DNA from: an uncultured Clostridia bacterium | GTDB taxonomy: Bacteria; Bacillota; Clostridia; Christensenellales; CAG-917 | NCBI GenBank assembly: GCA_934277615.1 | Contig: CAKQUV010000002.1 | Location: 98,855 to 162,854 of the forward strand | Length of the DNA: 64,000 nt | Reading direction: 5' to 3' | Shown: piece by piece, positions 5,548-64,000 of the stretch | Numbering within the stretch: position 1 is the first letter of the stretch | Layout: each line of letters begins with the position of its first letter | Translations under genes and position numbers: made by a program | Notes under the pieces: model-generated | Databases searched by the model: none | The model's input: the letters and a program-made list of their open reading frames with translations, nothing else | What the model was told of the DNA's origin: nothing

Positions 5548-6240
5548 TTAATTAATAATTAATAATTACGGAAGGCATAGCCTTATCTGAACGCACACTC
5601 ATTCGTAGTCTACTTATAAATGGTATATGCTTATTCGAAGTTGGAGGCGCAAGGCGCCGACCGCACCGAGCGTCGAGCTTGCGTCACACACAAGGCTTTT
5701 AGCCACAATTGTCACTCGTGCCAATTGCTTGCTTTTTGCCTTGGTGCTCCTTCTTTCCTTCACACAAAAGACTGCGCTTTCATCTTATATATTGCGCTTT
5801 CGTTCGCTTGTCTTTTGTGTGTGGAAGCCTTGTGGGTGCAGTACAAGCGACTGCGCAGTGTTGTTGCGTAGCCGGCGCACAAAGCGAAGTGGCATAATGA
5901 GAGGAATGTCCCTATCTATGCGCGTGCCGTAAGGAGCGAAGCGACGGAATAGCGATTGCTACGAAGTCAATCGCGTCGTGTGTCCCCCTGCGGAGCAGTT
6001 CCGTGGGTTCCCTCAAACGAAGTGCGGAGGGGGAACGGAATATGGGCGCGACGCGTTAAGCAACACATCCGGTGAATGTGTTGTAGCCAAAGCGAACGAG
6101 GCGGATTGCGGTGCGCAAACGCCGAAGTCCAAACACCGTGAGGAAGGGGGGGGAAAAAAAGTTGCATTTAATAGTATTTTTAGAAATACCGGCGTGTCCG
6201 GAAAGATGGGGTTATTGCATTTAAGGAGTTACGACGCACT
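5548..6240 (+). repeat. mosaic hairpin-rich intergenic element, copy 1 of 3 (~0.7 kb)
   Basis: Starts with a TTAATTAATAATTAATAATT leader 20 nt after the upstream stop. Long blocks are near-identical to 56936-57535 (same strand) and 33361-33887 (reverse complement). Examples: GCTTATTCGAAGTTGGAGGCGCAAGGCGCC, GCGCGACGCGTTAAGCAACACAT...GAATGTGTTGTAGCCAAAGCGAACGAGGCGGATTGCGGTGCGCAAACGCCGAAGT, CCGGCGTGTCCGGAAAG. Confidence 0.75.
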
Positions 6241-12326: not shown

Positions 12327-12417
12327 CGGAAGTAGTAGGGTATTGCGCGTTAAGTGCCGTGCGAACGTGGAGTGTCGGCGGACGAAGGGTTTTCCCGCGG
12401 TGCAATGCTCACTCCAG
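12327..12417 (+). promoter_or_regulatory. THF (tetrahydrofolate) riboswitch, THF-I / folT-motif class
   Basis: GGAAGUAGUAGGGUAUUGCGCGUUAAGUGCCGUGCGAACGUGGAGUGUCGGCGGACGAAGGGUUUUCCCGCGGUGCAAUGCUCACUCC. It shares the recalled hallmark blocks GUAG, GCGUUAAGUG, GUGUCG, ACGAAG, GCGGUG.AAU and a closing CUCC/GGA P1. It sits directly upstream of folC. Confidence 0.75.
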
Positions 12418-12470
12418 ACTTCACATATTACCGAAAGGTTTTTTGCGAGTACTTCCCGAGGAGGTGCTTT

Positions 12471-13790
12471 TTGTTTTATCAAGAGGCGATTGACTACATC
12501 AAGAATATAGAAAGAGCGGGCTCCGATTACGGCTTGGAGCGTATGCGAGAGCTTTTGGCGTTGCTGGGCAATCCCGACGACAAACTCAAATTCGTGCACG
12601 TTGCAGGCACCAACGGCAAAGGCTCCGTTACGGCGTATCTCACAAGTGCGCTAAAAGAGGCAGGTTATAGGGTGGGCACTTACAATTCTCCATCCGTTTT
12701 CCGATACAACGAAAGATGGCTCATAGACGGCAATCCCCTGTGCGACGAGGACGTGGCGCGCTATATGACGATTGTAAGAGAGTGCATAGAGAGCGAAAAA
12801 CAGCTGCGCTCTGCGTTCGGCATTGGCGATTTCAATCCCACCGCATTCGAGATAGAAACAGCGGTTGCAATGCTTGCCTTTTTCGATAAGGAATGCGATA
12901 TATGCGTTCTCGAAGTCGGACTTGGCGGAAGATGGGACGCGACAAATGCAATTTCTCAAAAGGAACTTGCCGTTATAACTCCAATAGGTCTTGACCATTG
13001 CGCGATTTTGGGCGATACGCTCGGCAAAATTGCAAGCGAAAAAGCGGCGATAATCAAGAAAGACTGCGTAACCGCAGAGCAGTGCGACGAGGTGATGAAA
13101 GAGATCTATCACCCATACGTATTTGACGAAAACTGCAAGAGAATCGACATAAATTCCAACGTAATTTTGTGCAAAAAAGCAAAACTTATCGAGCAGAATA
13201 TAGACGGGCAAACGTTTGAATACGACGGCAAAACATACCATATTTCAATGCTAGGCGCACACCAACTAGTCAACGCGTCTATAGCGATTTGCGCCCTTCA
13301 AACGCTTGGCAAAAAGCATTGGAATATCCCCGATGAGGCTATCAAGAAAGGGCTTGCCGATACCGTTTGGCACGCACGCTTCGAAGTGGTTAAAAACGCA
13401 AAAGAGAGGTTTAATATATCAATTCCGCAAGATAAAACGCTTGTTTTTGACGGCGCGCACAATCCGCACGGCGCAGCAACGCTTGCCAACGCAATCAAAG
13501 ATTTGTTTCCTGACAGACGCGTACATTTGGTTGTGGGCATGCTCAAAGACAAGGACGTGGACGGCGTATGCGCGATTGTCTGTCCGCTCGCAAAAAAGGT
13601 GAGCGTCGTTACTCCCACATCCCCAAGAGCAATGGACAAAAGCAACCTTATCAAAATCGCGAGCAAGTATTGCGAAAATTGCGACGAGCAAGACAGTGTA
13701 AAGGTCGGAGTGAAAAACGCGCTTGACGGAGATTGCGACGTCGTGATACTTTGCGGTTCGCTCACGCTTTTTGCCGATATGAAAAAGTAA
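12471..13790 (+). CDS. folC: bifunctional folylpolyglutamate synthase / dihydrofolate synthase
   Basis: VAGTNGKGS P-loop and Mur-ligase-like layout. The preferred start is TTG 12471, 6 nt after GGAGG (12460-12464). The track start 12354 lies inside the riboswitch. Confidence 0.85.
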   Translation: MFYQEAIDYIKNIERAGSDYGLERMRELLALLGNPDDKLKFVHVAGTNGKGSVTAYLTSALKEAGYRVGTYNSPSVFRYNERWLIDGNPLCDEDVARYMTIVRECIESEKQLRSAFGIGDFNPTAFEIETAVAMLAFFDKECDICVLEVGLGGRWDATNAISQKELAVITPIGLDHCAILGDTLGKIASEKAAIIKKDCVTAEQCDEVMKEIYHPYVFDENCKRIDINSNVILCKKAKLIEQNIDGQTFEYDGKTYHISMLGAHQLVNASIAICALQTLGKKHWNIPDEAIKKGLADTVWHARFEVVKNAKERFNISIPQDKTLVFDGAHNPHGAATLANAIKDLFPDRRVHLVVGMLKDKDVDGVCAIVCPLAKKVSVVTPTSPRAMDKSNLIKIASKYCENCDEQDSVKVGVKNALDGDCDVVILCGSLTLFADMKK

Positions 13791-13820
13791 CAAGTAAATA
13801 TAAAAACACAAATAACAAAA

Positions 13821-14060
13821 AATTAATAACAAAAAATTAATAATTAATAATTGCGGGTGGGCGTTGCCCACACCCGAGCAAAAGTCGTCGCTGTGGCAAA
13901 GATAACTCACAAGTTCATTGTCTACTGCCACGCTAGCCTTATTGCTCTGCTACCGCGCAACCGATATACGATCAGTATAGCATGGACAAGAATTCGTACC
14001 ACAGTTCCGCTATATCGCTTGCTTGGTGTATTTGTGGAGTATTCCGCAGCTAGAAAATTT
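13821..14060 (+). repeat. mosaic hairpin modules filling the folC-folE spacer
   Basis: AATTAATAAC..AATTAATAATTAATAATT leader, then GGGTGGGCGTTGCCCACACCC (same hairpin as 56970-56990) and a degenerate GTGGAGTATTCCGC palindrome. Confidence 0.5.
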
Positions 14061-14096
14061 AATAGTCAGTCTATAAAAGAGGTCAAGCATATAACT

Positions 14097-14654
14097 ATGA
14101 GCAGAGACATTGACAAAAAAAAGATACAATCGGCGGTGAGAGATATTCTCGTCGCAATAGGAGAAAATCCCGACAGAGAAGGGCTCAAAGACACGCCCGA
14201 CAGGGTAGCGCGTATGCTCGAGGAACTTACGGCAGGATACGATGAGAGCGTGTCGGGGCATTTGTCAAAGACTTTTGACGAGAGCGGAAGCGCGATTGTG
14301 GTAGAGCGAGATATCGATTTTTCGTCCACTTGCGAGCATCACCTTATGCCTTTTTTCGGCAAGGTGCATATTGCCTACGTTCCAAGCGGCAAAGTGGTCG
14401 GGCTTTCCAAACTTGCAAGAGTCGTTGACGTCTTTGCCAAGAGATTGCAACTGCAAGAGAGGCTCAACGCACAGATTGCGGACGCGATTTACCAAGAACT
14501 TGCGCCCAAGGGCGTTATCGTGGTTGTGGAGGCTCAACACACTTGCATGACCGCACGCGGAGTGAAGAAAGTCGGCTCGAACACGCTTACTTATGCCGTA
14601 AGAGGCGAAATTGACGACGCAGTCAAGGCAATGATGCTCGGAGGCGCGCAATGA
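14097..14654 (+). CDS. folE: GTP cyclohydrolase I
   Basis: 185 aa with [24 protein letters not shown] and RLQLQERL motifs. ATG 14097 is preferred over the track start 13851, which reads through the repeat region. Confidence 0.92.
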
Positions 14655-15454
14655 AAGGGGATAGAGTTTACGATTTGCACGTAAGGAACAAAGTTTTTAC
14701 GAGCGGAACGCACGTTATGGCGATTCTCAACGCAACGCCCGACAGTTTTTACGAGGGGAGCAGACATCGTTTCGATGCGGTTGAAACTGCAAAAAAGTTT
14801 ATCGAACAAGGAGCGGAGATTATCGACGTGGGCGGACAATCCACAAGACCCGGCGCTGCAAAAGTCGGCTCTTTGGAAGAGATGTCAAGGGTATTGCCCG
14901 TAATCGAGCAAATCCGCGCGCAATTTCCCGACATCCCAATAAGCGTTGATACATTTTATCCCGACGTTGCCGCAAGCGCAATCGACGCCGGCGCGGATAT
15001 GATAAACGACGTAAGTTGTCTAAAATACGACGGTATGGCGCAAGTTATTGCCGAAAAGGGCGCGTCCGTTTGCGTTATGCACGACAGGCGCGACAGCAAG
15101 ATAAAAGACTTGTTTTTGGACAAAGAAACAGGGCTTGCTTCCGCAGTGGACAAACTGTTGAAGTGTGGCGTGGCAAAAAACAAAATCTTGCTTGACGGCG
15201 GAATAGGATTCAACAAAAACAACGACGAGGACTGGCAACTTTTGAACGGCTACGACAAGCTCGTCGATATGTTTGACGAGTATCCGTTTTTGCTCGGCAC
15301 GTCGCGCAAGTCTATGTTCGGAGGTGAAGTGGGAGGTAGACTTTCGGCAACTCTCGACAGCACCGTGCTTGCTGTAAAACAAGGCGTTTTGTTCGTGCGA
15401 GTGCACGACGTCAAGGAAAACGCAATGGTCATCAAGTGCTATTCGAAGGTGTGA
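14651..15454 (+). CDS. folP: dihydropteroate synthase
   Basis: [24 protein letters not shown] and GIGFNK motifs. ATGA start/stop overlap with folE. Confidence 0.92.
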
Positions 15455-15455
15455 T

Positions 15456-16262
15456 ATGGACGTTATTGTTTTGAAAGATTTTGAAGTAACGGCATGCCAC
15501 GGAGTCAATCCCGAAGAGAAGGTAAATCCGCAAAGATTTTTGTTTACGGCAGAGATTTTTACGGATTTTTCAAAGTGCGCCAAAAACGACGATTTGACGC
15601 AAACCATAAGTTATAGCGCCGTAAAAAAGACTTTAAAGTCCTTTTGTGAAAACAACTGCTTTGATTTGATAGAAACTCTTGCCAAGAGAGGCGCGTCGCT
15701 TTTGCTAAAAACCTACCCCCTTGCAAGCGGTGTGAAACTCACCGTCAAAAAGCCCGACGCACCTATGAGCGGTGTTTTCGATTACGTCGCGGTAAGCACG
15801 GAACTTTGGTGGCATGAGGTTTATCTCGCGCTCGGATCAAATATGGGCGATCGCAACGCATACCTCGATTTTGCGATAGACAGATTGAAGGCGGACGACA
15901 ATTTCAAGGACATCGAAGAAAGCGGGAGAATGCAGTCCGCACCATATGGCAACGTCGCAACGGATACCTTTGTCAACAGCGCGGTGAAGTGCAAGACTTT
16001 GTATACTCCTCACGAGTTGCTCGATACGATTATGCAAATAGAAAAGGGCGGAGACCGCGTTCGTAAAGAGAGATGGGGCAACCGCACTCTCGATATCGAT
16101 ATCTTGTTTTACGACGATTTGATAATAGAGGACGACGATTTGTGCGTACCGCACATCGATATGCAAAATCGCGAATTTGTATTGAAACCTCTTTGTGAAT
16201 TGTGCCCCAACAAAGTGCATCCGCTTTTTAATAAACGTATCATTGAACTAAAAACGCACTAA
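15456..16262 (+). CDS. folBK: fused dihydroneopterin aldolase / 6-hydroxymethyl-dihydropterin pyrophosphokinase
   Basis: N-terminal FolB-like domain (CHGVNPEEK...ISYS). C-terminal HPPK domain (LALGSNMGDR, RWGNRTLDIDILFY). The last codons (KTH-stop) lie inside the palindromic element 16250-16375. Confidence 0.9.
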   Translation: MDVIVLKDFEVTACHGVNPEEKVNPQRFLFTAEIFTDFSKCAKNDDLTQTISYSAVKKTLKSFCENNCFDLIETLAKRGASLLLKTYPLASGVKLTVKKPDAPMSGVFDYVAVSTELWWHEVYLALGSNMGDRNAYLDFAIDRLKADDNFKDIEESGRMQSAPYGNVATDTFVNSAVKCKTLYTPHELLDTIMQIEKGGDRVRKERWGNRTLDIDILFYDDLIIEDDDLCVPHIDMQNREFVLKPLCELCPNKVHPLFNKRIIELKTH

Positions 16263-16375
16263 ATCGCGCCTAACTTCGGCAGAGCCGTCCGATTGCCAAC
16301 TCATTTACGTTTAGTAAATTAGGGTTGCCACTCGGACAGCTCTTTCTTGTTATGCATCGATTTATCGCGTTTTTT
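16250..16375 (+). repeat. ~125-bp imperfect palindrome with attC-like geometry, copy 1
   Basis: AAAACGCACTAAATCGC-GCCTAAC(16268-16274)-ttcggc-AGAGCCGTCCG...CATTTACGTTTAGTAAATTAGGG...CGGACAGCTCT-ttctt-GTTATGC(16349-16355)-ATCGATTTATCGCGTTTT. Overlaps the folBK stop codon. Confidence 0.8.
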
Positions 16376-16510
16376 ATTAACTTTTATAAACTTATCTTTT
16401 ACTATAATATGGCATTTTTGCTTCAAATCAATTGCCTATTGCACATATTATCCACATATGTTATCATATCAGTGTAATAAAACACATTGTGTTCAAAAAG
16501 AGGAGAAAAT

Positions 16511-17014
16511 ATGAGGATAATTATTAAGCAAAAGTATTTCACAATCGGTAACAAATTCAAAATCACGGACGAAAACGACGCCGTCGTGTTCTTTGCCGTG
16601 CGCCAGTTTGACAGAATTATGTCAAACGTCGTGTTGTTTGACAAAAACGATACGCCCCTTTTGCGTGTGCAAGCGGAACTCAAAAAGTTTTTTACAACCT
16701 ATTTCGAGGTCAATGACGCTTACGGCGCAAAACTCTTTGCCATTGACGAAAAATTGCCGTTTTTCTGCTTTAAGCGCGCCAAGACCGTTGGCAATATCGA
16801 CGTCAAAATCAAGTGCGGACCAATACATATGAAAGCGTATATTTCGGACGGTAAAGGTTCTTACGACAAAACGCCCGTCGTGCGTGCCCGCAAAAAGATT
16901 TTAAGCATTGCCGACACCTACGTCGTGGATATCGACGATGCGCGAATTCGTTCGGAGTACGGTGCTGTCATTGGCATCTGGTATGATTTAATCAAACATA
17001 ACAAAACGCACTAA
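16511..17014 (+). CDS. LURP-one-related / YxjI-like (tubby C-terminal-like fold) protein
   Basis: MRIIIKQKYFTIGNKFKITDENDAVVFFAV... pattern of the PF04525-type family. AGGAGA SD before ATG 16511. Ends in KTH-stop encoded by repeat copy 2. Confidence 0.6.
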   Translation: MRIIIKQKYFTIGNKFKITDENDAVVFFAVRQFDRIMSNVVLFDKNDTPLLRVQAELKKFFTTYFEVNDAYGAKLFAIDEKLPFFCFKRAKTVGNIDVKIKCGPIHMKAYISDGKGSYDKTPVVRARKKILSIADTYVVDIDDARIRSEYGAVIGIWYDLIKHNKTH

Positions 17015-17125
17015 ATTGCGCCTAACTGCGTCAAGTCAGTCCGCCCGTCAACTCATTTACGATTAGTAAATTAGGGTTGCCGTTCGGACAGCCTTTCCTT
17101 GTTATGCATCGATTTATTGTGTTTT
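17003..17125 (+). repeat. ~125-bp imperfect palindrome with attC-like geometry, copy 2
   Basis: AAAACGCACTAAATTGC-GCCTAAC(17020-17026)...CATTTACGATTAGTAAATTAGGGTTGCCGTTCGGACAGCC...GTTATGC(17101-17107)-ATCGATTTATTGTGTTTT. Same strand and same 88-nt AAC-to-GTT box span as copy 1. Confidence 0.8.
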
Positions 17126-17186
17126 GCGTAAACTAAATTCAAATTCTACACAAAACAAAAAAACGATTACAATAAATTCAAATAAA

Positions 17187-17216
17187 ATAAAAGCCCGACG
17201 TCGTCGGGCTTTTTTA
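17187..17216. terminator. bidirectional intrinsic terminator
   Basis: AAAA-AGCCCGACG/CGTCGGGCT-TTTTT. Confidence 0.8.
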
Positions 17217-19393: not shown

Positions 19394-20572
19394 ATGGATA
19401 TCGAGACTTTGAGCGACAAACTGCAATACGTCGCGCTCTATCTTGCCGTGGCAATCGTGGCGGCGTTTATTGTGGTCGGGCTTCTCGTTTGGTTCAAGAA
19501 ACGCGACAAATTCGCCGATTTCAAAAAATACGCCGTCGGCATCGTAACGGGCTTTGCCGTAACAATGGTGGTCGTGTTTGCTTACGTCAAGTTTCAATGC
19601 AATCTGGGCGATATGCAAGCCAAACTCTTTTACCCCATTCTCGCAACGCTCATAACTGTGGTCGCAGGCGCAATCGCAATGCTCGTAAGCTCGCTTTTCA
19701 GCAACAAAGCGACAAAGATTTCCTTTATCGTAACGGCATTAGCGGTGCTTGGATGTTTTATCGCCACAATGGTGCTTATGGCGCAATACTACGGCGATAT
19801 TGCGGAGGATTATCCGTCCGCAAACCTCGTTGGCATGATTGTATCCGCAGTCGTGTTTATGGTGATAATGGTCGTTATGTGGTTTGTAGGGGACAAGCGC
19901 AAGATGAGCGACACTCGCTCTATCGTTTATGGCGCAATCTCAATCGCACTTTCCTTCGCGCTCTCGTACGCACGCATTTTCAAACTTCCTCAAGGCGGCT
20001 CCGTAACGTTCGCAAGCCTCCTTCCGCTCATGGTGTATTGCTGCATGTTCGGCACGAGAAGAGGTCTTATCGTATGCACGATATACGGCGTTTTACAAGC
20101 GCTACAAGACCCGTACATAATTCACCCGATGCAATTCTTGCTCGATTATCCTCTTGCATTCGGTCTTATCGGCGTAAGCGGCATATTTATGGAGAAGGGC
20201 GTATTCAAGGATAAAAAAGTCGTTGCATTCCTGCTCGGCGGCGTTATCGCAGTCGTATTGAGATACGCATGCCACGTATGCTCCGGCGTCTTTGCGTTTG
20301 CCGACTATGCCGACCTCGATAAGTACAACACCGCAATCGCATACAGCATGGCGTACAACTCCTTCGCTTTTGTGGATATGCTCATCGCTCTCGTCGCAGG
20401 CAGCGTCTTGTTTGCTTCCAAATCCTTTACGGCGCTTATGCAAAAGTCAAGCGACTTGAACAAGGCGGCGGAAGTCGCACCCTTGCAAGAGGTTGAGGAT
20501 GACGAACCCGTTGACGAAATCGACCGTCAAATCATCGAAAGCCAAAAAGCAGACGATGAAAGTCAAAATTAA
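19394..20572 (+). CDS. thiT: ECF-type thiamine transporter S-component ThiT fused to an extra N-terminal multi-TM region
   Basis: The C-terminal ~200 aa match the ThiT/YuaJ pattern (ISIALSFALSYARIFKLPQGGSVTFASLLPLM...). About 190 extra N-terminal residues carry ~5 TM helices. Acidic C-tail. GGAGGA SD. TPP riboswitch lies upstream. Confidence 0.8.
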   Translation: MDIETLSDKLQYVALYLAVAIVAAFIVVGLLVWFKKRDKFADFKKYAVGIVTGFAVTMVVVFAYVKFQCNLGDMQAKLFYPILATLITVVAGAIAMLVSSLFSNKATKISFIVTALAVLGCFIATMVLMAQYYGDIAEDYPSANLVGMIVSAVVFMVIMVVMWFVGDKRKMSDTRSIVYGAISIALSFALSYARIFKLPQGGSVTFASLLPLMVYCCMFGTRRGLIVCTIYGVLQALQDPYIIHPMQFLLDYPLAFGLIGVSGIFMEKGVFKDKKVVAFLLGGVIAVVLRYACHVCSGVFAFADYADLDKYNTAIAYSMAYNSFAFVDMLIALVAGSVLFASKSFTALMQKSSDLNKAAEVAPLQEVEDDEPVDEIDRQIIESQKADDESQN

Positions 20573-20598
20573 TAGTTAATAATTATTAATTAATAATT

Positions 20599-20707
20599 GT
20601 GGAATATTCCACAACTTGCGCCTATGGCGCAAATATCACTTTTTGCGTAAGCAAAAAATATCACTTGTGCGTAGCACAAATATCACTGCACGAAGTGCAA
20701 TATCACT
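20599..20707 (+). repeat. hairpin/ATATCAC array B (4 units plus GGAATATTCC palindrome)
   Basis: GTGGAATATTCCAC, then TTGCGCCtatGGCGCAA-ATATCAC(20633), TTTTGCgtaaGCAAAA-ATATCAC(20658), TGTGCgtaGCACA-ATATCAC(20680), GCACgaaGTGC-ATATCAC(20700). Lies between the thiT stop (plus an AT-rich leader) and the terminator. Confidence 0.85.
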
Positions 20708-22508: not shown

Positions 22509-23444
22509 ATGGAAGTCAGGATACCTTCGGGTTTCAAAATAGGTCATTACGACGACGAATACACGGGCGTAACCGTCGTTCTTTCAGAGAGCGGCGCAAC
22601 GGGCGGCGTTGACTGTCGCGGCGGCGCCCCCGGCACGAGAGAAACCGACCTTTTGCACAATGAAAAAATGATGCAAAAAGTCAACGCAATCGTGCTTTCG
22701 GGAGGCTCGGCATACGGGCTTGCCTCCACGTGCGGAGTTATGGAATACTTGCGTCAAAAGGGCGTTGGATACAAGAGCCTCGGCAAAATCGTGCCTATCG
22801 TTTGCGGTGCGGTTTTATACGACCTCAATCAAAAGGAATATCACTATCCAACCGCAGAATACGGACTTAAAGCCTGCGAAAATGCTTCAAAAACCACCGT
22901 TTTTGGCAATATCGGCGCAGGTAAGGGCGCAACCGTCGGCAAAATCCGCGGCATCAAAAACGCATGCAAGAGCGGTATCGGCGCGGCAACGGAAAAGGTG
23001 CTGGGCGTTACCGTAACGGCAATCGTCGCAGTCAACGCAATGGGCGATATCGTCGATGATGAGGGAAAAATCATCGCAGGCGCAAAAGGCAAAAACGGAG
23101 AGTTTATCGACACCGAAAAATGCCTTGCCGAGGGCGACGTGCTCAAACTTGCGTTTGGCACCAACACCACGATAGGATGTATTCTCACCGACGCAAAACT
23201 AGACAAGGTGGACGTCAATAGGCTTGCAAGCATTTCCCACAACGGACTTGCAAGAGCAATCCGTCCCGTGCATACCATGTACGACGGCGATACAATGTTC
23301 TGCCTTGCAAGCGGCAAACGTCCTGTGGCAAATCTTGCAGTGCTTCAATCGGCAGTCGTCCGCGCCACACAGCGCGCCATTCAAAACGCCGTTGCCGCAA
23401 CAACAAATTATGATGTGATATACGATGATGACGAAGAGGAGTAA
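22509..23444 (+). CDS. P1 (S58, DmpA/BapA-like) family aminopeptidase
   Basis: GVTVVL...GGVDCRGGAPGTRETDLL, SGGSAYGL and the self-processing GTNTTIG motif. Confidence 0.8.
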   Translation: MEVRIPSGFKIGHYDDEYTGVTVVLSESGATGGVDCRGGAPGTRETDLLHNEKMMQKVNAIVLSGGSAYGLASTCGVMEYLRQKGVGYKSLGKIVPIVCGAVLYDLNQKEYHYPTAEYGLKACENASKTTVFGNIGAGKGATVGKIRGIKNACKSGIGAATEKVLGVTVTAIVAVNAMGDIVDDEGKIIAGAKGKNGEFIDTEKCLAEGDVLKLAFGTNTTIGCILTDAKLDKVDVNRLASISHNGLARAIRPVHTMYDGDTMFCLASGKRPVANLAVLQSAVVRATQRAIQNAVAATTNYDVIYDDDEEE

Positions 23445-23740
23445 AAATTAATAATTGATGGTGGAACACCCACATCCGAACGAAAATAAATATGGAATAT
23501 TCCATATGTCATTCCGCCAATGTCGAGTGAGAAAACTTGCTTGCAAGGGTTTCCGAACGACGATATTTTTGAAGTGATTGAAATTGCATTTATGCAAAAA
23601 AAGCCATAGGCTTGCGCTATTAGCGCACAATCACTGTGGGAACGAAGTGACCGTGGGAATCTAGCGTAGCGAAATGCGCCTGCGGCTAGATTGCCACGCT
23701 TGCGCTCGCAATGACGAAAGGGTGGGATACCCACACCCGA
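23445..23740 (+). repeat. mosaic hairpin modules (AT-rich leader, GTGG..CCAC hairpins, GGAATATTCC palindrome)
   Basis: AAATTAATAATT directly after the stop, then GGTGGAACACCCAC, ATATGGAATATTCCATAT (23490-23507), AAGCCataGGCTT, GCGCtattaGCGC and GGGTGGGATACCCACACCC. The same module types occur at 5548, 13821, 20569 and 56936. Confidence 0.55.
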
Positions 23741-23863
23741 ATGGAATAATCCACAACTGCGGCAACGCCGCAATATCACTTTTTGCGAAAGCAAAAAATA
23801 TCACTTGCGCAAAGCGCAAATATCACTGCGCCCACGGCGCAATATCACTCGCACGAAGTGCGA
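23741..23863 (+). repeat. hairpin/ATATCAC array C (5 hairpins, 4 linkers)
   Basis: ATGGAATAATCCAC, then TGCGGCaacGCCGCA-ATATCAC(23773), TTTTGCgaaaGCAAAA-ATATCAC(23798), TTGCGCaaaGCGCAA-ATATCAC(23820), TGCGCCcacGGCGCA-ATATCAC(23842), TCGCACgaaGTGCGA. Ends 9 nt before the ATG of the radical SAM gene. Confidence 0.85.
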
Positions 23864-29393: not shown

Positions 29394-31247
29394 ATGGCAC
29401 AAGAAAGAATTAAAACTCCAAAATCCAAAGGCGGATGGAAGAAGATGGCAGGGTGCATCGGCGAATACAAGGTGCCCACGATTTTCACATCCGTTTTGGT
29501 GGCGTGCGAGGTGTTGTTCGAGGTCTTTATACCGCTCATAATGGCGCAAATCGTCAACGTCGGCATGGACACAACGATAGACTCGTTCACCTTTACGATT
29601 GAACTTGGCAAAATCAAATGGATTTGGTTTACGCTTGCGGACAGAAAGATGTTCATCCTGGCGTGCGGCGGACTTATGATTGCAATGGCGCTCATATCTC
29701 TTTTGTTCGGCGTAACGTCGGGCAGACTTGCCGCAAAAGCGTCCACGGGTTTTGCAAAGAACTTGCGCAAAAAGCTCTTTTACAAAATTGAGAATTTCTC
29801 CTTTGCAAACCTTGACCGTTTCAACACCGCAAGCCTCGTTACAAGACTTACGACGGACGTAACCAACATACAGATGTCCTATCAGGTTGTATTCCGTATG
29901 CTCGTTCGCTCTCCGGTTATGCTCATACTCGCCATCTGCATGGCGGTATCCATAAGCCCGGATTTGTCCGTAATATTCGCAGTCGCTTTGCCGATACTTC
30001 TTATCGGTATCATCATCGGCGTAAAAGTCGTTTTCCCGAGATTTGAGAAAATGCTTCACAAGTACGACGATATGAACGAGTCCACGCAAGAAAACCTTAT
30101 CGGTATCCGCGCGGTCAAAGCGTTCGTAAGAGAGGACAACGAGATTGCCAAATTCAAAAAAGTCAGTTCCACCGTTCAAAAATTGCAGTTGTCGGCAGAG
30201 CGCATTATCGTCATCATGTTCCCGTTTATGCAACTTCTCGTCTACGGATGCTTGATTTGCGTGGCGTGGTTCGGCGGCAACGATATCATTATCGGCAAAA
30301 TGCATCTTGGCGATTTCACGGCGTTTTTGAGCTACATAATGCAGATTCTGATGTCGCTTATGATGGTCGCAATGGGCTTTATGACCATCGTTATGTCGCG
30401 CGCTTCGCTTGACCGTATCGTCGAAGTTTTGGACGAAAAGATCGACATCGAGGACGGCGAGAACGCTCAGGACATCCAAGTCGCAGACGGCAGTATAGAC
30501 TTTGACAACGTGGATTTCTCTTATTCCAAATCGCCGGACGTTCTCAATCTCGAGAATATCGACCTTCACATAAAGAGCGGCGAAACGATAGGAATCATTG
30601 GCGGCACGGGTTCGGCAAAAACCACGCTCGTGCAACTTATACCTCGTCTTTACGACACGCTTGACGGCGAAGTAAAGGTTGGCGGAGTCAACGTCAAGGA
30701 TTACAAACTTGACAATTTGCGCTCGGCAATCGGCATGGTGTTGCAAAAGAACGTGCTTTTCAGCGGCACAATCAAGCAAAACTTGCTTTGGGGCAACCCG
30801 AACGCAACGGATGAGGAAGTTGAGCACGCAGCCAAAGCGGCGCAAGCGCACGATTTTATCATGTCTTTCCCCGACGGCTATCAGACGGAACTCGGACAGG
30901 GCGGCGTCAACGTATCAGGCGGACAAAAGCAACGTCTTTGTATTGCGCGCGCGCTTTTGAAACATCCCAAAATTATGATTTTGGACGACTCTACTTCAGC
31001 AGTCGATACCGCAACCGACGCAAAGATAAGAAGCGGTCTTAAGAGCGAATTCGGCGATACCACCGTTATTATAATCGCGCAGCGTATATCTTCCGTTGAG
31101 AACGCGGACAGAATTATTGTCATGAACGACGGCAAGATTGACGCAATCGGCACGCATGAAGAACTTATCGCAACCAACAATATCTATCAAGACGTATATA
31201 ATTCCCAAAAGAAGGGATCGGACGAGGAGGTGAGCGTTAATGCCTAA
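29394..31247 (+). CDS. ABC exporter, fused permease/ATPase (type I exporter half-transporter A)
   Basis: Six-TM domain plus an NBD with GGTGSAKTT Walker A, SGGQKQR signature and ILDDSTSAVD Walker B. Alternative GTG start at 29388. Confidence 0.9.
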   Translation: MAQERIKTPKSKGGWKKMAGCIGEYKVPTIFTSVLVACEVLFEVFIPLIMAQIVNVGMDTTIDSFTFTIELGKIKWIWFTLADRKMFILACGGLMIAMALISLLFGVTSGRLAAKASTGFAKNLRKKLFYKIENFSFANLDRFNTASLVTRLTTDVTNIQMSYQVVFRMLVRSPVMLILAICMAVSISPDLSVIFAVALPILLIGIIIGVKVVFPRFEKMLHKYDDMNESTQENLIGIRAVKAFVREDNEIAKFKKVSSTVQKLQLSAERIIVIMFPFMQLLVYGCLICVAWFGGNDIIIGKMHLGDFTAFLSYIMQILMSLMMVAMGFMTIVMSRASLDRIVEVLDEKIDIEDGENAQDIQVADGSIDFDNVDFSYSKSPDVLNLENIDLHIKSGETIGIIGGTGSAKTTLVQLIPRLYDTLDGEVKVGGVNVKDYKLDNLRSAIGMVLQKNVLFSGTIKQNLLWGNPNATDEEVEHAAKAAQAHDFIMSFPDGYQTELGQGGVNVSGGQKQRLCIARALLKHPKIMILDDSTSAVDTATDAKIRSGLKSEFGDTTVIIIAQRISSVENADRIIVMNDGKIDAIGTHEELIATNNIYQDVYNSQKKGSDEEVSVNA

Positions 31248-33210
31248 AACAAAGAAAAACACGGCAAATCCCGCAATGCACGGCAAGAATTTCCGCGCCC
31301 AAAGCCCGTCCAAGACTTTCAAGCGAATACTAACTTATCTCAAGCCCTACACGGGTATGTTGATCGGCGCGTTGATTTGCATGATCGCAAACGTCGTCTG
31401 CAACATCGCAGGCACGTTTATGCTCGGCTCCGTCATTGTCAACAACTACATTCTTCCGCTTGCGTATAAGTTTAATAACTTGGTGACAACCGACCCCGAC
31501 ATCATTGCAAGGTCTGCGGAAATCACCATTCAGAACTTCGGCGGCATAGTCGGCGTTATGGCGGCAATGTACGTCGCCGGCGCAAGCTTGCACTATGTAT
31601 ATAACTACATCATTGTAAAAGTTACTACTCAAGTGCTTCAAAACGTCCGCGACGAGATGTTTGAAAAGATGGAAAAATTGCCCATTCGCTACTTCGACAC
31701 TCACACGCACGGCGACATAATGAGCCTTTACACCAACGACACGGACACTTTGCGCGAGTTGCTCTCCAACGGCATCCCCAACCTCATATCCAACGTTATG
31801 ACGATAGTGGGTATGTTCATCGCAATGATGGCAACGTCGTGGGTGCTTGCGCTTTGCTCAGTCGCAATGATAGTCGTTATGCTGTTTATAATGAAGTACA
31901 TCGGCGGCAAGAGCGGCAAGTATTTTGTCGGACAACAACGCCAGACGGGCGCAATCAACGGCTTTATAGAAGAACATATCGACGGTATGAAGGTTGTCAA
32001 AGTGTTCTGCCACGAGGACGCGGAAAAAGAAGATTTCGACGGTTTCAACGAACGTCTTTTCCACGATTCCGACAAAGCGCACAAATACGCAAATATCTTG
32101 TTCCCGATTATGGGCAACTTGTCCTACGTATCTTATGCAATCACCGCAATCGTCGGCACGATTTTGGCAATAAGCGGTACGGGCGCGGTGGCGCTTTCCT
32201 GGGGCGGTTTGGTATCCTTCATGCAGTTCTCTCGTCAATTCAGCAATCCGCTTGCGCAAATCGCTCAACAAATGAACGGCGTTCTCATGGCGCTTGCAGG
32301 AGCGGAACGTATCTTCGAGCTTATCGACCAAGAACCCGAAAAAGACGAAGGCTACGTTACTTTGGTCAACGCAAAAGAGGACGAGAACGGCAACATTGTC
32401 GAAACTCCCGAATATACGGGTATGTGGGCTTGGAAACACTTCCACAAAGCGGAAGGCACAACCACCTACGTCAAGTGGCAAGGTAAAGTGCAGTTTGATG
32501 ACGTAACGTTTGGATACGTGCCTGAAAAGACCGTGCTCAAACACGTTACCATGTACGCATTGCCCGGACAAAAAGTCGCGCTTGTCGGCTCAACAGGCGC
32601 AGGCAAAACAACCATAACCAACCTTATCAACCGCTTCTACGACGTGGAGGACGGCAAGATAAGATACGACGATATCAACATCACCAAAATCAACAAGAAC
32701 GATTTGCGCCGCTCCATGGCAATGGTTTTGCAGGATACGCACCTTTTCACGGGTACCGTTGCGGACAATATCCGCTTTGGCAAACTTGACGCAACTGACG
32801 AGGAAGTTGAAAACGCCGCAAAACTCGCCAATGCCGACTATTTCATCCGCCACTTGCCCGAGGGCTATAACACAATGCTCACAGGCGACGGCGAGAATTT
32901 GTCGCAAGGTCAACGTCAGCTCCTCGCAATCGCGCGCGCGGCAATTGCCAATCCGCCCGTGCTTATTTTGGACGAGGCAACCAGCTCCATCGACACTCGC
33001 ACCGAGAAACTCATCGAGCAAGGCATGGACAAACTCATGCAAGGTCGCACCGTCTTTGTCATCGCCCATAGACTTTCCACCGTCCGCAACGCCGACGTTA
33101 TCTGCGTTCTCGAACACGGTGAAATCATCGAACGCGGCAATCACGAGCAGTTAATCGCTAAACGCGGTAAGTACTATCAACTCTACACCGGCGCTTTCGA
33201 ACTTGAATAA
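31240..33210 (+). CDS. ABC exporter, fused permease/ATPase (half-transporter B)
   Basis: GSTGAGKTT, SQGQRQL and ILDEATSSID motifs. 8-nt overlap with the upstream half-transporter gene suggests a heterodimer. The stop codon lies inside palindromic element copy 3. Confidence 0.9.
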   Translation: MPKTKKNTANPAMHGKNFRAQSPSKTFKRILTYLKPYTGMLIGALICMIANVVCNIAGTFMLGSVIVNNYILPLAYKFNNLVTTDPDIIARSAEITIQNFGGIVGVMAAMYVAGASLHYVYNYIIVKVTTQVLQNVRDEMFEKMEKLPIRYFDTHTHGDIMSLYTNDTDTLRELLSNGIPNLISNVMTIVGMFIAMMATSWVLALCSVAMIVVMLFIMKYIGGKSGKYFVGQQRQTGAINGFIEEHIDGMKVVKVFCHEDAEKEDFDGFNERLFHDSDKAHKYANILFPIMGNLSYVSYAITAIVGTILAISGTGAVALSWGGLVSFMQFSRQFSNPLAQIAQQMNGVLMALAGAERIFELIDQEPEKDEGYVTLVNAKEDENGNIVETPEYTGMWAWKHFHKAEGTTTYVKWQGKVQFDDVTFGYVPEKTVLKHVTMYALPGQKVALVGSTGAGKTTITNLINRFYDVEDGKIRYDDINITKINKNDLRRSMAMVLQDTHLFTGTVADNIRFGKLDATDEEVENAAKLANADYFIRHLPEGYNTMLTGDGENLSQGQRQLLAIARAAIANPPVLILDEATSSIDTRTEKLIEQGMDKLMQGRTVFVIAHRLSTVRNADVICVLEHGEIIERGNHEQLIAKRGKYYQLYTGAFELE

Positions 33211-33331
33211 GCCCCACAACGGCAAATAACTGCGTCAGAGCCGTCCGCCCGTCAACTCATTTACGCTTAGTAAATTAGGGTTGCCGTTCGGACGGCTTTT
33301 CCGCGCTCTTCATCTCAATATTGGCTTATTC
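33205..33331 (+). repeat. ~125-bp imperfect palindrome with attC-like geometry, copy 3 (right box decayed)
   Basis: GAATAAGCC...AAATAAC(33224-33230)-tgcgtc-AGAGCCGTCCGCCCGTCAACTCATTTACGCTTAGTAAATTAGGGTTGCCGTTCGGACGGCT...GCTCTTC(33305-33311)...GGCTTATTC. The outer arms GAATAAGCC/GGCTTATTC pair. Confidence 0.75.
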
Positions 33332-33360
33332 GCGCTCGAAAGATAAAGTATTGTCATAAC

Positions 33361-33887
33361 TCCTCAAAATACAATAACCCCCTCTCTCCGGACACGCCGG
33401 CATTTCTCGAAACAACTATTAAATGCAATTTTCCCTTTCCTCAAGGTGTTTGGACTTCGGCGTTTGCGCACCGCAATCCGCCTCGTTCGCTTTGGCTACG
33501 ACACATTCACCGAATGTGTCGCTTAACGCGTCGCGCCCATATTCCGTTCCCCCTCTGCGCTTTGCTTGAGGGAACCCACGACGACCGCGCAGCGGGGGAC
33601 AACTCGACGCGATTGACTTCGTAACAATCGCTATTCCGTCGCTACGCTCCTTACGGTACTCGCATAGAAAAGTATCGTTCTCTTGTTATGCCACTTCGCC
33701 TGCGTGGCGGCTGCGCAACAAAATGCCACGCATTCTCGTACTATTCATCAAGCTCGACGCTCGGTGCGGTCGGCGCCTTGCGCCTCCAACTTCGAATAAG
33801 CACATTCCGTTAATAAGTACTCTCCGAATGAGTGTGCGTTTGGATAAGGCTACACCTTCCACAATTATTAATTATTAATTATTAATT
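33361..33887 (-). repeat. mosaic hairpin-rich intergenic element, copy 2 of 3 (inverted, lacks the ~180-nt internal module)
   Basis: The reverse complement aligns with 5548-6240 and 56936-57535, including the AT-rich leader (33863-33887). The module GCGTCACACACAAGGC...GTACAAGCGACTGCGC is missing. Confidence 0.75.
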
Positions 33888-33908
33888 CAAATATAACCTA
33901 ATCCTATC

Positions 33909-33937
33909 TTGAAAACACATTACACCTATGCTACAAT
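33909..33937 (+). promoter_or_regulatory. promoter of a probably leaderless mRNA
   Basis: TTGAAA (33909-33914), 17-nt spacer, TACAAT (33932-33937). The ATG at 33944 is only 6 nt downstream and has no SD. Confidence 0.5.
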
Positions 33938-42952: not shown

Positions 42953-42981
42953 TTGATTTTTTCTTATAAACTATGTATAAT
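42953..42981 (+). promoter_or_regulatory. promoter of the acidic-protein genes
   Basis: TTGATT (42953-42958), 17-nt spacer, TATAAT (42976-42981). The ATG of the track ORF (42973) overlaps the -10 box. Confidence 0.5.
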
Positions 42982-43011
42982 CTATTAGATACTAAATCGC
43001 GGAGGAATATT

Positions 43012-63456: not shown

Positions 63457-63801
63457 ATGCACGAGTTAGGAGTGGTTTTTCACATTGCGGACATAGTGAG
63501 CGACGTCGCTCGCAAGAACAACGCGTCCAAAATTGCAAAGGTCGTCATGCAAATCGGCGAGGTTTCCACCGTCGTCAACGACCAACTCATCGATTGCTGG
63601 AATTGGAACGCCAACCGCACCGTCCTTCTCAAAGGTTGTAAAATAGAAGTGGAAACCATTCCTGCCGTCACCTATTGCGAGGATTGCAAAAAAGAGTATC
63701 CCACCGTTCAATACGGCAAAATTTGCCCCTACTGTGGCAGTGAGCATACTTATCTTTTGCGAGGGAACGAAGTCCAAATCAAAGAAATCCTCGTGGAATA
63801 A
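63457..63801 (+). CDS. hypA: HypA-type nickel insertion / zinc-finger metallochaperone
   Basis: MHELGV N-terminus (MHE nickel site) and a CEDC...CPYC zinc site. 114 aa. The stop lies inside palindromic element copy 4. Confidence 0.85.
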   Translation: MHELGVVFHIADIVSDVARKNNASKIAKVVMQIGEVSTVVNDQLIDCWNWNANRTVLLKGCKIEVETIPAVTYCEDCKKEYPTVQYGKICPYCGSEHTYLLRGNEVQIKEILVE

Positions 63802-63923
63802 GGGCTCAAATAGCGAATAACTTCGGCAGAGCCGTCCGCCCGTCAACTCATTTACGCTTAGTAAATTAGGGTTGCCGTTCGGACGGCTCTTTCTTGTTCT
63901 TCATCTATTTGAGCTCTTATTCT
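63797..63923 (+). repeat. ~125-bp imperfect palindrome with attC-like geometry, copy 4
   Basis: GAATAAGGGCTCAAATAGC-GAATAAC(63815-63821)-ttcggc-AGAGCCGTCCGCCCGTCAACTCATTTACGCTTAGTAAATTAGGGTTGCCGTTCGGACGGCTCT-ttctt-GTTCTTC(63896-63902)-ATCTATTTGAGCTCTTATTC. Confidence 0.8.
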
Positions 63924-64000
63924 ATTGCGCATTAGTCAAAGCTTCTTGTGCATCAACTCACGTACGTACTAGTACGTTAGGGTTGCTGCCCAAGGGGCTT

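Follow-up and report, generated by a model that had tools for sequence, protein, structure and literature searches.

A stop-codon-associated hairpin repeat of gut Clostridia and its two copies around a LURP-one-like gene of the folate operon

A gene similar to LOR/LURP-one (the LURP-like gene) that lies between two palindromes at the end of a folate operon is, judged by its conserved position in relatives, a resident member of that operon and not a mobile cassette, and the palindromes are two copies of an apparently undescribed family of ~135-nt hairpin repeats. We lean towards a joint account in which this repeat is dispersed and strand-specific, the LURP-like gene is resident, the copies would arise by copying at the DNA level and the hairpin would have a role in 3' untranslated regions. 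The repeat was analysed in a window of 64 kb (the whole stretch of DNA under study) and in loci fetched from other genomes.

Results

The folate operon and the copies of the repeat in the window

The genes of the folate operon in Table 1 were assigned by Pfam, the HPPK domain of the folB-folK (folBK) product stopping at residue 251 and the last ORF giving a weak match to LOR/LURP-one. This ORF is preceded by a Shine-Dalgarno sequence, AAGAGGAGAAAATATG, as an earlier note on this DNA had stated; the same note saw no obvious promoter, which does not hold, hexamers resembling a promoter being found upstream at 16422-16451 and 16440-16467.

Table 1. Positions of the repeat copies and of neighbouring features in the window
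Feature	Position	Strand	Remarks
THF riboswitch	12329..12422	+	Head of operon folC-folE-folP-folBK-LOR; Rfam RF01831, 62.1 bits
folB-folK fusion gene (dihydroneopterin aldolase + HPPK)	15456..16262	+	268 aa; Pfam FolB and HPPK
Hairpin repeat copy 1	16245..16385	+	Covariance model 141.4 bits; on folB-folK end
Stretch absent from L113 and L114	16250..16417	+	Repeat and ~45 nt AT-rich; three-way alignment
Copy 1 tip	16297..16327	+	CAACTC-A-TTTAC-GTTTA-GTAAA-TTA-GGGTTG
LOR/LURP-one-like gene	16511..17014	+	167 aa; last gene in folate operon
Hairpin repeat copy 2	16997..17137	+	Covariance model 136.9 bits; operon-end site
Intrinsic terminator, two-way, ordinary	17189..17213		Common to convergent Na/Ca-exchanger gene; downstream of copy 2
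Hairpin repeat copy 3	33201..33341	+	109.8 bits; stop codon of ABC exporter 31240-33210
Hairpin repeat copy 4	63792..63932	+	147.3 bits; stop codon of hypA (63457-63801)
Fifth copy, tandem, cut by window end	63939..64000	+	46.3 bits, model positions 38-98

Five copies of the repeat, which is an imperfect palindrome, are present in the window, every one on the + strand and four of them full, at a density of roughly one copy per 13-16 kb. By direct comparison the four full copies span 16251-16382, 17003-17134, 33207-33338 and 63798-63929; the covariance model adds the fifth and gives the + strand 110-147 bits against 35-57 bits for the - strand. The 28-nt core CATTTACGNTTAGTAAATTAGGGTTGCC occurs four times in the window, as against none in 100 shuffles. 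Part of the fifth copy can be read (CAACTCACGTACGT, ending at about 63967), and a variant tip, ...CAACTCACGTACG..., is suggested. The LURP-like gene does lie between two palindromes on the same strand, as had been reported. The starts of these copies, 1 and 2, are 752 nt apart, the other window copies being separated by 16 and 30 kb, and the two are only 83-85% identical, the inner stem of copy 1 being nearer to copies from other genomes than to that of copy 2.

The left arm of copy 1 forms the last three codons and the stop codon of folB-folK, the ORF extending to a TAA within the repeat (16260-16262) because the TAA at the usual boundary (16249-16251) is out of frame. In copy 2 it is likewise the outer arm that encodes the last three codons and the stop codon of the LURP-like gene. 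The earlier observation that both proteins end in K-T-H-stop read from the left arm was borne out: both reading frames terminate AAA ACG CAC TAA, because copy 1 has the outer-arm variant of copy 2 (AAAACGCAC, then TAA). On the sense strand the tip of copy 1 has a T.G wobble and unequal bulges, and a run of six T closes its right arm. Since the terminator listed in Table 1 is downstream of copy 2, that copy would lie within the 3' untranslated region.

According to the earlier note, the final codons of the upstream gene, together with its stop codon, are supplied or overwritten by the repeat in four of four cases. The ABC exporter and HypA do both end in E-stop, their coding ends reading GAA TAA G; however, the claim stands for copies 1 and 2, and not for HypA or, probably, the ABC exporter. 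The Pfam profile of HypA reaches the C-terminus and four other species terminate ...KEIAVE-stop; by this comparison the HypA end is native. The ABC exporter end is probably native also, the right arm of copy 3 mirroring a gene-specific coding end (its right flank mirrors ~14 nt at the end of the coding sequence). When copy 3 is compared with its orthologue at locus L066, its right module is seen to have been replaced as a block.

Copy 1 as an insertion beside a resident gene

The LURP-like gene was found directly after folBK in 20 of 20 related folate loci (FolBK identity 72-94%), with a gap of 69-250 nt between the two genes. The earlier note had asked whether relatives would have a single repeat copy in place of the gene; the gene was present in every one, and the element that differs among genomes at this locus is copy 1. 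Copy 1 is a lineage-specific insertion, since in the two closest relatives, L113 (94%) and L114 (91%), folBK is followed by the LURP-like gene and no repeat separates the two. It can be seen from the three-way alignment that the inserted stretch, comprising the repeat and the AT-rich extra nucleotides (about 16383-16427), replaces ~24 nt that make up the native last seven codons and the stop codon of folK. The 45 extra nt matched neither the flank of copy 2 nor any other part of the window or of the fetched loci.

The C-termini of relatives agree with this, and folBK was indeed found to end differently where the repeat is lacking, which was another point that the earlier note had raised. Repeat-free FolBK proteins terminate ...ELYHSLKRS-stop as against ...ELKTH-stop in the window. 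LURP-like proteins of relatives terminate ...AQH-stop as against ...KTH-stop (the C-termini found were KHDAQH, KHNAQH, EHGSQH, NHRGH or CHPSH), and compared with L113 the window gene resembles a ~10-nt deletion. The repeat has thus rewritten the C-termini of two proteins, with seven codons lost from FolK and three changed in the LURP-like protein. Copy 1 is present in all ten contigs that carry an identical LURP-like protein, each with a 268-aa FolBK and a 248-nt gap, and among these ten there was no strain-level empty site for copy 1. Many relatives carry a repeat at the operon-end site of copy 2, where the subtypes differ and are often in tandem. At the level of sequence, these comparisons show copy 1 to be a recent secondary insertion into the last seven codons of folK, and copy 2 to occupy an old site at the end of the operon, where re-use or conversion has happened repeatedly.

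The conserved position of the LURP-like gene refutes, by the earlier note's own test, the proposal that 16350-17101 is a single-gene cassette. The related reading, that the palindromes are attC-type sites and that this unit was captured at G/TT of the GTT boxes, we consider extremely improbable. Copies 1 and 2 are co-oriented and their spacing formally fits that of an attC cluster, a CALIN being defined by two or more same-strand attC sites separated by less than 4 kb (PMC4889954). Both copies have the boxes GCCTAAC (RYYYAAC) on the left and GTTATGC on the right, with one departure, and between the boxes, which are ~90 nt apart, there is an unpaired spacer and a variable stem. Like attC sites, above all the uniform ones of chromosomal integrons such as the Vibrio cholerae repeats, the repeat is a structure-defined hairpin with RYYYAAC...GTTRRRY-like boxes, and it shares with them strand asymmetry and a position 3' of an ORF in the same orientation, often overlapping the ORF end (PMC4889954). 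However, the gene follows folBK in relatives with or without repeats, the tip of the repeat is conserved where that of attC is variable, and its AAC/GTT triplets are not invariant, being AGC/GCT in 12 of 89 copies, with other forms occurring. The stems extend 15-30 bp past the boxes, with 15 further pairs outside the box, where pairing in attC sites ends. Left and right box types are matched in about 90% of copies, so that G/TT exchange is not the main process. The repeat is scattered after housekeeping genes in 16 assemblies and not arrayed, and the genes that it flanks are conserved core genes. Pfam found no tyrosine recombinase or integrase among the 40 large ORFs of the window, and no recombinase-like ORF recurred across the 112 loci and the window. 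The IntegronFinder survey found no complete integrons in Firmicutes (PMC4889954).

Anatomy and covariation of the repeat

Each copy is one long hairpin with ~46 consensus pairs. A near-invariant asymmetric tip is followed by a variable, covarying inner stem, and then by a conserved unpaired internal loop, with TTYGKCAG opposite CTTTCKY. Outside this loop there are a few module types containing a TAAC/GTTA-like box, and beyond these the locus-specific outer arms, which begin at or just after the stop codon of the co-oriented gene and whose complement pairs on the far side. For the copies listed, folded by RNAfold together with 110 nt on each side, the energies were about -57 to -119 kcal/mol; the 141-nt element by itself averaged about -55 kcal/mol. 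Of the cells, 94.9% were paired (shuffles, 75.2%; slid controls, 33-44%). Compensatory changes were present in 32 of the 46 pairs, and the covariation score was 0.507 against 0.156.

The tip was invariant in 89 of 89 aligned copies, an invariance that partly reflects the collection of these copies by an exact search with this very pattern. Tip variants with covarying stems (TTTAC/GTAAA, CGTAC/GTACG and TGTAC/GTACA) keep the U.G wobble and the unequal bulges, and in one variant the wobble is changed to C-G. In the arms, G.T pairs (68) and A.C pairs (72) are equally frequent, and this lack of wobble bias argues against RNA-level selection on the arms. As a test of strand, folding energy was ambiguous, with the sense strand favoured by the tip and slightly better antisense folding of the arms in 93 of 122 copies. 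An antisense mini-ORF (ATG...CCCTAA, ~12 codons) was considered and rejected, as single-base length changes in the inner stem break its frame.

The copies are mosaic and fall into discrete subfamilies. Locus L035 is a perfect palindrome in which even the loop sequences are copied in the right arm; L003 and L031 are decayed copies that have lost the tip or one arm; and two different subtypes carry a nested mini-hairpin of ~50 nt, inserted at the same fixed position in the left loop. CGTC occurs in part of the copies, TGCGTCAG being found in some and TTCGGCAG or TTTGTCAG in others.

The columns at the ends of the repeat are the most variable and those at the centre are invariant, which is one reason why we find it very improbable that the repeat is a MITE. 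It is palindromic and of MITE-like length and copy number, and many copies start TAAAAC... and finish ...GTTTTA, but the terminal inverted repeats are not conserved, TAA...TTA is an inverted and not a direct duplication of the stop codon, and copy 1 both replaced native nucleotides and brought extra ones. A TA target duplication was rejected after inspection of the right flanks, as no stop-codon pattern is seen at the base that follows the right-hand TA. The Correia elements of Neisseria, 100-155-bp inverted-repeat elements present in hundreds of copies, have conserved terminal repeats and a TA target duplication, occur in both orientations and are co-transcribed with neighbour genes as hairpins that affect mRNA processing. 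The present repeat differs from them in having variable ends, no direct target duplication and one orientation to the gene.

Dispersal and placement at stop codons

The core pattern was found at no fewer than 112 loci in 16 species-level gut MAGs; the hosts are a clade of common, though uncultured, human-gut Clostridia, namely the MAGs 'Christensenella sp. UBA7571/6880/767/7588', UMGS1170 and others. There were no matches to the core pattern in viral contigs. At the gathering threshold, the sole Rfam match in the window was the THF riboswitch; with E up to 10, the best match in 16200-17200 had E = 0.28 and no family was found for the repeat, nor did an Rfam search find a family for the 570-nt repeat.

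In 49 copies a stop codon lies at -49 to -43 from the tip, whereas genes on the opposite strand occupy the mirrored place in two. A co-oriented ORF of 100 codons or more abuts 62 of the 91 testable copies, and a shorter one abuts 9; a further 13 come after another copy in tandem arrays and 4 sit 56-130 nt from an ORF end. Stop-codon, near-stop or tandem placement thus fits 88, and 3 fit none of these. The stop codon at the junction is TAA in 29 of 33 non-orthologous genes (background 56%) and is fully paired in the hairpin at 31 of 40 loci. Among the genes that bear copies are housekeeping genes such as gyrA/gyrB-linked genes, leuS-linked genes, hypA and ABC exporters. Locus L022 has both orientations within 8 kb, each copy following its own gene, and replication direction was on this ground rejected as the cause of orientation.

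Only ~15% of loci show a mirror copy of the coding end (12 or more of 18 bases; controls, 3%), and this minority feature was discarded as a general rule. Insertion into the loop of an existing hairpin or terminator was also rejected: when L079 and L004 were compared with L022, and L113 and L114 with the window, no hairpin was present at the empty orthologous sites, which are unlike the outer arms.

The repeat resembles an intrinsic terminator in being a hairpin right after a gene, and a T run is found at the end of copy 1 and of roughly one copy in four (at least five T in a 10-nt window at the 3' base of the hairpin in 30 of 118 copies). However, its stem is about five times longer, most copies have no T run and copy 2 has a separate canonical terminator downstream. 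Separate canonical terminators were found within 200 nt of 21 of the 91 testable copies and nowhere near the other 70. As both T runs and nearby canonical terminators are the minority, a simple terminator role is not general.

These placements could also be explained if the repeat were a cis-acting 3'-UTR RNA motif, kept by selection gene by gene and essentially immobile, whose copies are alike through common function and occasional gene conversion. The sense orientation is strict, the U.G wobble of the tip is conserved, most copies have no other terminator nearby, and the same gene ends bear a copy across species (hypA in at least five, a 304-aa hydrolase in nine). We nevertheless regard this explanation as improbable: copy 1 was inserted de novo and damaged a coding end, some copies stand in tandem arrays or are truncated, one is a perfect palindrome, and orthologous sites hold different subtypes with unrelated inner stems. 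In addition, wobble pairs are not favoured in the arms, and an identity of 83-95% over the ~135 nt between unrelated loci is repeat-like.

Discussion

The account that we favour would treat the repeat as a non-autonomous DNA element, whose copying and homogenisation would result from processes that work on the hairpin at the level of DNA, such as template switching or fold-back copying, with patchy gene conversion among copies. From its position, it would be co-transcribed as part of the 3' untranslated region, and the tip and loops of the sense strand would probably serve in the formation or stabilisation of mRNA 3' ends or as a protein-binding site. Signs of copying at the level of DNA are the equal numbers of G.T and A.C pairs, the palindrome of L035, the mosaic and decayed copies and the replaced module of copy 3, and the sense strand is marked by the wobble and bulges of the tip and by the two orientations at L022. 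Template switching alone leaves the exact start at co-oriented stop codons unexplained.

A different proposal is that the hairpin is moved by an enzyme encoded elsewhere (a tyrosine recombinase, an HUH/RAYT-type transposase or a reverse transcriptase), which would recognise the folded sense strand through its asymmetric tip and loops and insert copies at the ends of genes, for example where DNA becomes single-stranded as transcription terminates. We hold this to be possible and rather doubtful. Conservation of the tip and of the non-complementary loops while the stems vary follows the logic by which structure is recognised in attC sites and REPs, orientation is strict and the subfamilies are discrete, new insertions are found at sites with no prior hairpin, and the nested mini-hairpins have entered at a fixed left-loop point in two subtypes. 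However, the search for mobility genes, which covered about 1.3 Mb around known copies, yielded no autonomous partner element, either by arm spacing or by ORF clustering: left and right arms lay 0.4-3.5 kb apart in one case only, the window has no such gene, and there was no multi-copy or transposase-like family among 932 ORFs from the 112 loci and the window. Junctions vary from copy to copy, and target bases are replaced and not directly duplicated. The mosaic copies, the perfect palindrome and the equality of the G.T and A.C counts speak for errors of copying and not for clean cut-and-paste.

More tentatively, and in our estimate unlikely, the repeat may be a new kind of hairpin, either mobile or self-propagating, whose targets are the stop codons of genes in its own orientation; such homing may include an inverted copy of the target (the stop codon, sometimes with 8-20 nt of coding sequence) on the far side. 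To our knowledge, no described bacterial repeat family shows stop-codon homing with an inverted target copy. If the homing reading were true, propagation would be coupled to the end of transcription or translation, or there would be a new folded-strand recombinase outside the integron.

The nearest parallels to the rewritten C-termini are the enterobacterial imperfect palindromes ERIC/IRU (RU-1, 127 bp) and YPAL (RU-2, 168 bp), which can fuse to the 3' end of an ORF, removing its stop codon and giving a new C-terminus and stop (Delihas 2007, PMC2759123). They are interspersed palindromes of ~130-170 nt, mostly gene-adjacent and co-transcribed (PMC2759123), features shared by the repeat, for which co-transcription is suggested by position. 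Copies 1 and 2 act as ERIC and YPAL do, in that a new C-terminus and stop codon are supplied. However, there is no sequence relation, the repeat has a fixed side on the stop codon (49 against 2), it conserves the tip and not the whole unit, and its host is a Gram-positive gut clade. ERIC is found in both orientations and is not known to be tied to stop codons.

REP, BIME and REPIN sequences are high-copy extragenic palindromes that lie mostly 3' of coding regions, between unidirectional or convergent genes, fall into subfamilies, occur in clusters and are believed to work as hairpins in RNA (PMC3733652, PMC3116915). High copy number, placement 3' of genes, subfamilies and clusters are shared with the present repeat. 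REP units are, however, 20-40 nt long with stems of 6-13 bp and a GTAG or CGTC tag, a RAYT gene being flanked by such units, and one survey recorded none from Firmicutes (PMC3733652), whereas the repeat described here is far longer and more extensively paired, and the tag-like CGTC is present in some copies only. No RAYT-like gene was seen in the 112 loci and the window.

We conclude that the cassette or integron lead in these Clostridia can be closed, as nothing in the window or the 112 loci suggests an integron. A separate functional lead is the LOR/LURP-one-like gene itself, which is conservedly linked to a folate operon under a THF riboswitch. The repeat lays a hairpin, of ~46 consensus bp plus locus-specific outer arms, over stop codons, and its tie to gene direction is far stricter than in the known REP, ERIC or Correia repeats; gene callers and predictors of 3' untranslated regions and terminators for this clade should take it into account. 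If the anchoring at stop codons reflects the mechanism of insertion, it would be a new targeting principle, and if it reflects function, the repeat would be a widespread RNA element of mRNA 3' ends.

The LURP-like gene is resident in the folate operon

The LURP-like ORF does lie between copies 1 and 2 of the hairpin repeat, which start 752 nt apart, and from this bracketing the earlier note had drawn the idea that the gene and its 3' palindrome were a single mobile cassette appended to the folate operon. The folB-folK gene matches the Pfam families FolB and HPPK, and the LURP-like ORF has a weak Pfam match to LOR/LURP-one, an identification shared by the annotation precomputed for the identical protein. 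Orthologous loci were collected by a metagenome scan with FolBK, which gave 20 relatives with a readable next gene (FolBK identity 72-94%). In all 20 the LURP-like gene begins 69-250 nt past folBK; none has lost it and kept a single repeat in its place. In the closest relatives, L113 (94%) and L114 (91%), copy 1 is missing, and their 93-nt folBK-LURP spacer corresponds almost base for base to 16418-16510 of the window. When 21 loci were searched with a covariance model built from the repeat alignment, repeats were present only downstream of the LURP-like gene, frequently two or three in tandem with differing subtypes and tips; one lineage had no repeat, and a plain terminator in its place. As the gene is conserved after folBK and the repeats vary, it is the resident last member of the operon (THF riboswitch-folC-folE-folP-folBK-LOR), and the cassette reading is refuted. 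We conclude that the copy 2 site is old and has been re-used many times and that copy 1 is a lineage-specific insertion. Copy 1 is fixed, being present in all 10 contigs that bear the identical LURP-like protein. The two copies share only 83-85% identity, and copy 1 has an inner stem nearer to copies from other genomes than to copy 2. The supposed lack of an obvious promoter also proved wrong: promoter-like hexamers are present upstream of the ORF.

We also noted that the LOR-like gene ends the operon in all relatives that reach 72% FolBK identity (L113-L133), and that a 43%-identity FolBK group is without it and has a different gene next, suggesting that this functionally uncharacterised family has a role linked to folate. 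The last ~45 nt of folK ahead of copy 1 (16205-16250) are ~60% identical to L113/L114, and the rest of folK and the LOR-like gene over 95%; from these identities it looks as if recombination had brought in the segment bearing copy 1 from a more remote relative.

Features of the window, with positions and strands
Feature	Position	Strand	Basis or remark
Repeat copy 1 (folB-folK end)	16251-16382	+	repeat search
Repeat copy 2 (after LURP-like gene)	17003-17134	+	repeat search
Repeat copy 3 (ABC exporter)	33207-33338	+	repeat search
Repeat copy 4 (hypA)	63798-63929	+	repeat search
Folate operon	12329-17014		ends in LOR-like gene
folB-folK	15456-16262
Boundary TAA	16249-16251		out of frame for folBK
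LURP-like ORF	16511-17014
Canonical terminator	17189-17213		downstream of copy 2
ABC exporter	31240-33210
hypA	63457-63801
~570-nt second repeat	5553-6150; 56934-57475	+; +	long near-identical blocks
~50-nt mini-hairpin	5946-5977; 33606-33637	-; +	GACGCGATTGAC...GCAATCGCTATTCC
AT-rich box, then short G+C hairpin	13842-13874; 56958-56990		AATTAATAATTGCnnGTGGGCGTTGCCCACACC
Related AT-rich boxes	20565-20599; 23442-23482; 33861-33909
58-nt stretch	20632-20689; 23772-23829		91% identical
568-aa ORF	42973-44679		no Pfam match
TIR-domain protein	49665-50471		TIR_2

Repeat-encoded and native C-termini

The earlier note had proposed that the repeat supplies the last codons and stop of its upstream gene in four of four cases. 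The shared endings are indeed there: folB-folK and the LURP-like ORF both finish AAA ACG CAC TAA within the left arm, and the ABC exporter and hypA both finish GAA TAA G. Two of the four ends are read from the repeat, and the proposal is therefore good for folBK and the LURP-like protein, does not hold for HypA and probably does not for the ABC exporter. FolBK relatives that are free of the repeat end other than in KTH, with ELYHSLKRS, ELYAELTEQ, ELKSDLDNRR and similar before the stop, compared with ELKTH in the window; seven native codons have been swapped for three from the repeat, beyond residue 251, where the HPPK domain stops. Since the usual boundary TAA is not in frame here, the folBK ORF continues to the next TAA, within the module. 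LURP-like relatives end KHDAQH or KHNAQH, and the window protein, of equal length, KHNKTH. Compared with the relatives this end looks like a ~10-nt deletion, by which the ORF would read into the outer arm, AAAACGCAC followed by TAA. In L113 the same outer arm comes directly past the native stop, as TAA followed by ACGGCAC. Copy 1 bears this outer-arm variant on both its sides, and K-T-H is common to both proteins for that reason.

The HypA Pfam profile extends as far as the C-terminus, and KEIAVE is the ending of orthologs from four other species; the terminal Glu and stop are native. The right flank of copy 3 mirrors the gene-specific end of the ABC exporter (CTTTCGAACTTGAATAAG), a mirror also kept in L066, and this end too is probably native, though not proven to be so. 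At the ABC-exporter end of the window the protein is 99.5% identical to UBA7571.

Structure and spread of the repeat

The four same-strand copies form one family; their 28-nt core CATTTACGNTTAGTAAATTAGGGTTGCC occurs four times in the window vs none in 100 shuffles. The covariance model found five copies, every one on the + strand, and told the strands clearly apart (110-147 bits vs 35-57 on the other). An Rfam search of the window gave no family resembling the repeat. A scan of a 25-nt core against one genome per bacterial species gave at least 112 stretches. The matches listed fell in 16 assemblies of uncultured Clostridia from the human gut, the majority labelled 'Christensenella sp. UBA7571/6880/767/7588', UMGS1042/1170/1331/1366 and CAG:238; three with unrelated names (Butyrivibrio crossotus, Phascolarctobacterium succinatutens, Anaeroplasmataceae) were taken to be putative mislabelled bins. 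The repeat is real and abundant.

It can be seen from an alignment of 89 copies that each is a single long hairpin. Its outermost layer is a pair of locus-specific outer arms that differ between loci; inside these lie a module of few types (e.g. GCTATTTAGCGAATAAC...GTTCTTCATCTAAATAGC or GCTAAATCGCGCCTAAC...GTTATGCATCGATTTAGC), a conserved, unpaired internal loop (TTYGKCAG opposite CTTTCKY), a variable and covarying inner stem of 9-12 bp and a central tip, CAACTC-A-TTTAC-GNTTA-GTAAA-TTA-GGGTTG, whose invariance in this alignment is partly built in because copies were gathered by an exact core pattern. Paired cells reached 94.9%, compared with 75.2% when shuffled and 33-44% with partners slid, the covariation score was 0.507 vs 0.156 for the control, and 32 of 46 pairs showed compensatory changes. 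A further 24 copies combine the same arms with other tips, e.g. CAAATC-A-CGTAC-loop-GTACG-TT-GGGTTTG, in which the tip stem covaries and a U.G wobble beside the closing C-G pair and unequal bulges are retained; one tip variant replaces the wobble by C-G.

Other repeats were observed in the window. Each copy of the ~570-nt repeat, which has no Rfam match, is immediately upstream of an ORF, and it also occurs in L114 past the LOR-like gene; in other genomes its first part (CTTATTCGAAG..GGA...CGCAAGGCG) recurs 3' of many copies of the hairpin repeat. The mini-hairpin behaves as a nested insertion: it is present or absent among close relatives (L127-L129 vs L124, L130 and L131), and in two subtypes of the big hairpin it enters the left internal loop at a single position (TTTG^TCA). 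One ~570-nt copy contains it too. One AT-rich box with its G+C hairpin is between folC and folE. The 58-nt stretch, upstream of two different + strand operons, has three AATATCAC boxes parted by short palindromes, resembling an operator array common to the two. The 568-aa ORF has Glu-rich imperfect repeats (GAAGAA... units). The stand-alone TIR-domain protein, weakly similar to ThsB-like TIR and encoded amid housekeeping genes, may be a candidate defence gene product.

Placement at stop codons

The tie to stop codons and gene direction is an unusual trait of the repeat. Among 91 copies with sufficient flank, 62 adjoin the stop of a co-oriented ORF with 100 codons or more, nine adjoin a shorter one, 13 follow an earlier copy in tandem arrays, four are separated by 56-130 nt from the end of an ORF and three fall in none of these classes. 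The stop is 49-43 nt ahead of the tip in 49 copies, and an opposite-strand gene stop takes the mirrored place in only two. Locus L022 holds both orientations within 8 kb, each behind its own gene, and gene direction rather than replication direction therefore sets orientation. The junction stop is TAA in 29 of 33 non-orthologous genes vs 56% of long ORFs overall, and is wholly base-paired in the predicted hairpin at 31 of 40 loci. Minor stop classes at -37, -33 and -26 arise because the left arm has stops in all three frames within ~25 nt. In ~15% of loci (e.g. L026, L029, L025 and copy 3), vs 3% of controls, the right flank mirrors at least 12 of the last 18 coding-plus-stop bases.

Comparison with known elements

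By behaviour the nearest systems are ERIC/RU-1 and YPAL/RU-2, enterobacterial imperfect palindromes of 127-168 nt that are able to join onto the 3' end of an ORF and substitute for its stop codon (PMC2759123). The design resembles that of attC sites (PMC4889954) in its box pair, unpaired spacer, variable stem and strand asymmetry. However, the repeat fails the defining attC tests: the flanked gene is conserved, the repeat is not in arrays, its AAC/GTT is not invariant, its pairing runs past the boxes, and no integrase was seen nearby, the 40 large window ORFs including no integrase, transposase or reverse transcriptase. Nor is it a REP, the units of which measure 20-40 nt, bear a GTAG or CGTC tag and are accompanied by RAYT genes (PMC3733652), or a standard MITE: its ends are variable, direct target duplication is absent and no partner element was found. 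From a limited literature check, this interspersed hairpin repeat has apparently not been described before.

Propagation and possible role

The repeat is dispersed and oriented, and new copies stand at formerly hairpin-free sites (L079 and L004 vs L022; L113 and L114 vs the window). Insertion can swap out target bases and add sequence: in copy 1, ~24 nt gave way to the repeat and a further ~45 nt for which no source was found in the window or the collected loci. Copies are mosaic, as in copy 3, whose right module is block-replaced relative to its ortholog and the remainder nearly identical, and they decay by loss of the tip or of one arm. The copy in L035 (5238-5378), among the few that adjoin an opposite-strand gene, is a perfect palindrome, its right arm the exact complement of the left even at the normally unpaired loops, and resembles a fold-back copying event captured as it happened. 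In the arms, G.T mismatches (68) are as infrequent as A.C mismatches (72), against 2741 Watson-Crick cells. Arm complementarity would be made and renewed on DNA, by fold-back or template-switch copying with patchy conversion between copies, and selection at the RNA level is probably not what maintains it.

A general role as a simple terminator was rejected, at least five T in a 10-nt window at the hairpin 3' base being found in only 30 of 118 copies; a separate terminator lies within 200 nt in 21 of 91, and copy 2 has the canonical terminator at 17189-17213 on its downstream side. The strict sense orientation, together with a tip and loops that are conserved and non-palindromic, suggests a strand-specific role: the repeat may act within the 3' untranslated region of the mRNA or, as single-stranded DNA, be bound by a protein. 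If the anchoring to stop codons reflects an insertion mechanism, the finding gains in interest.
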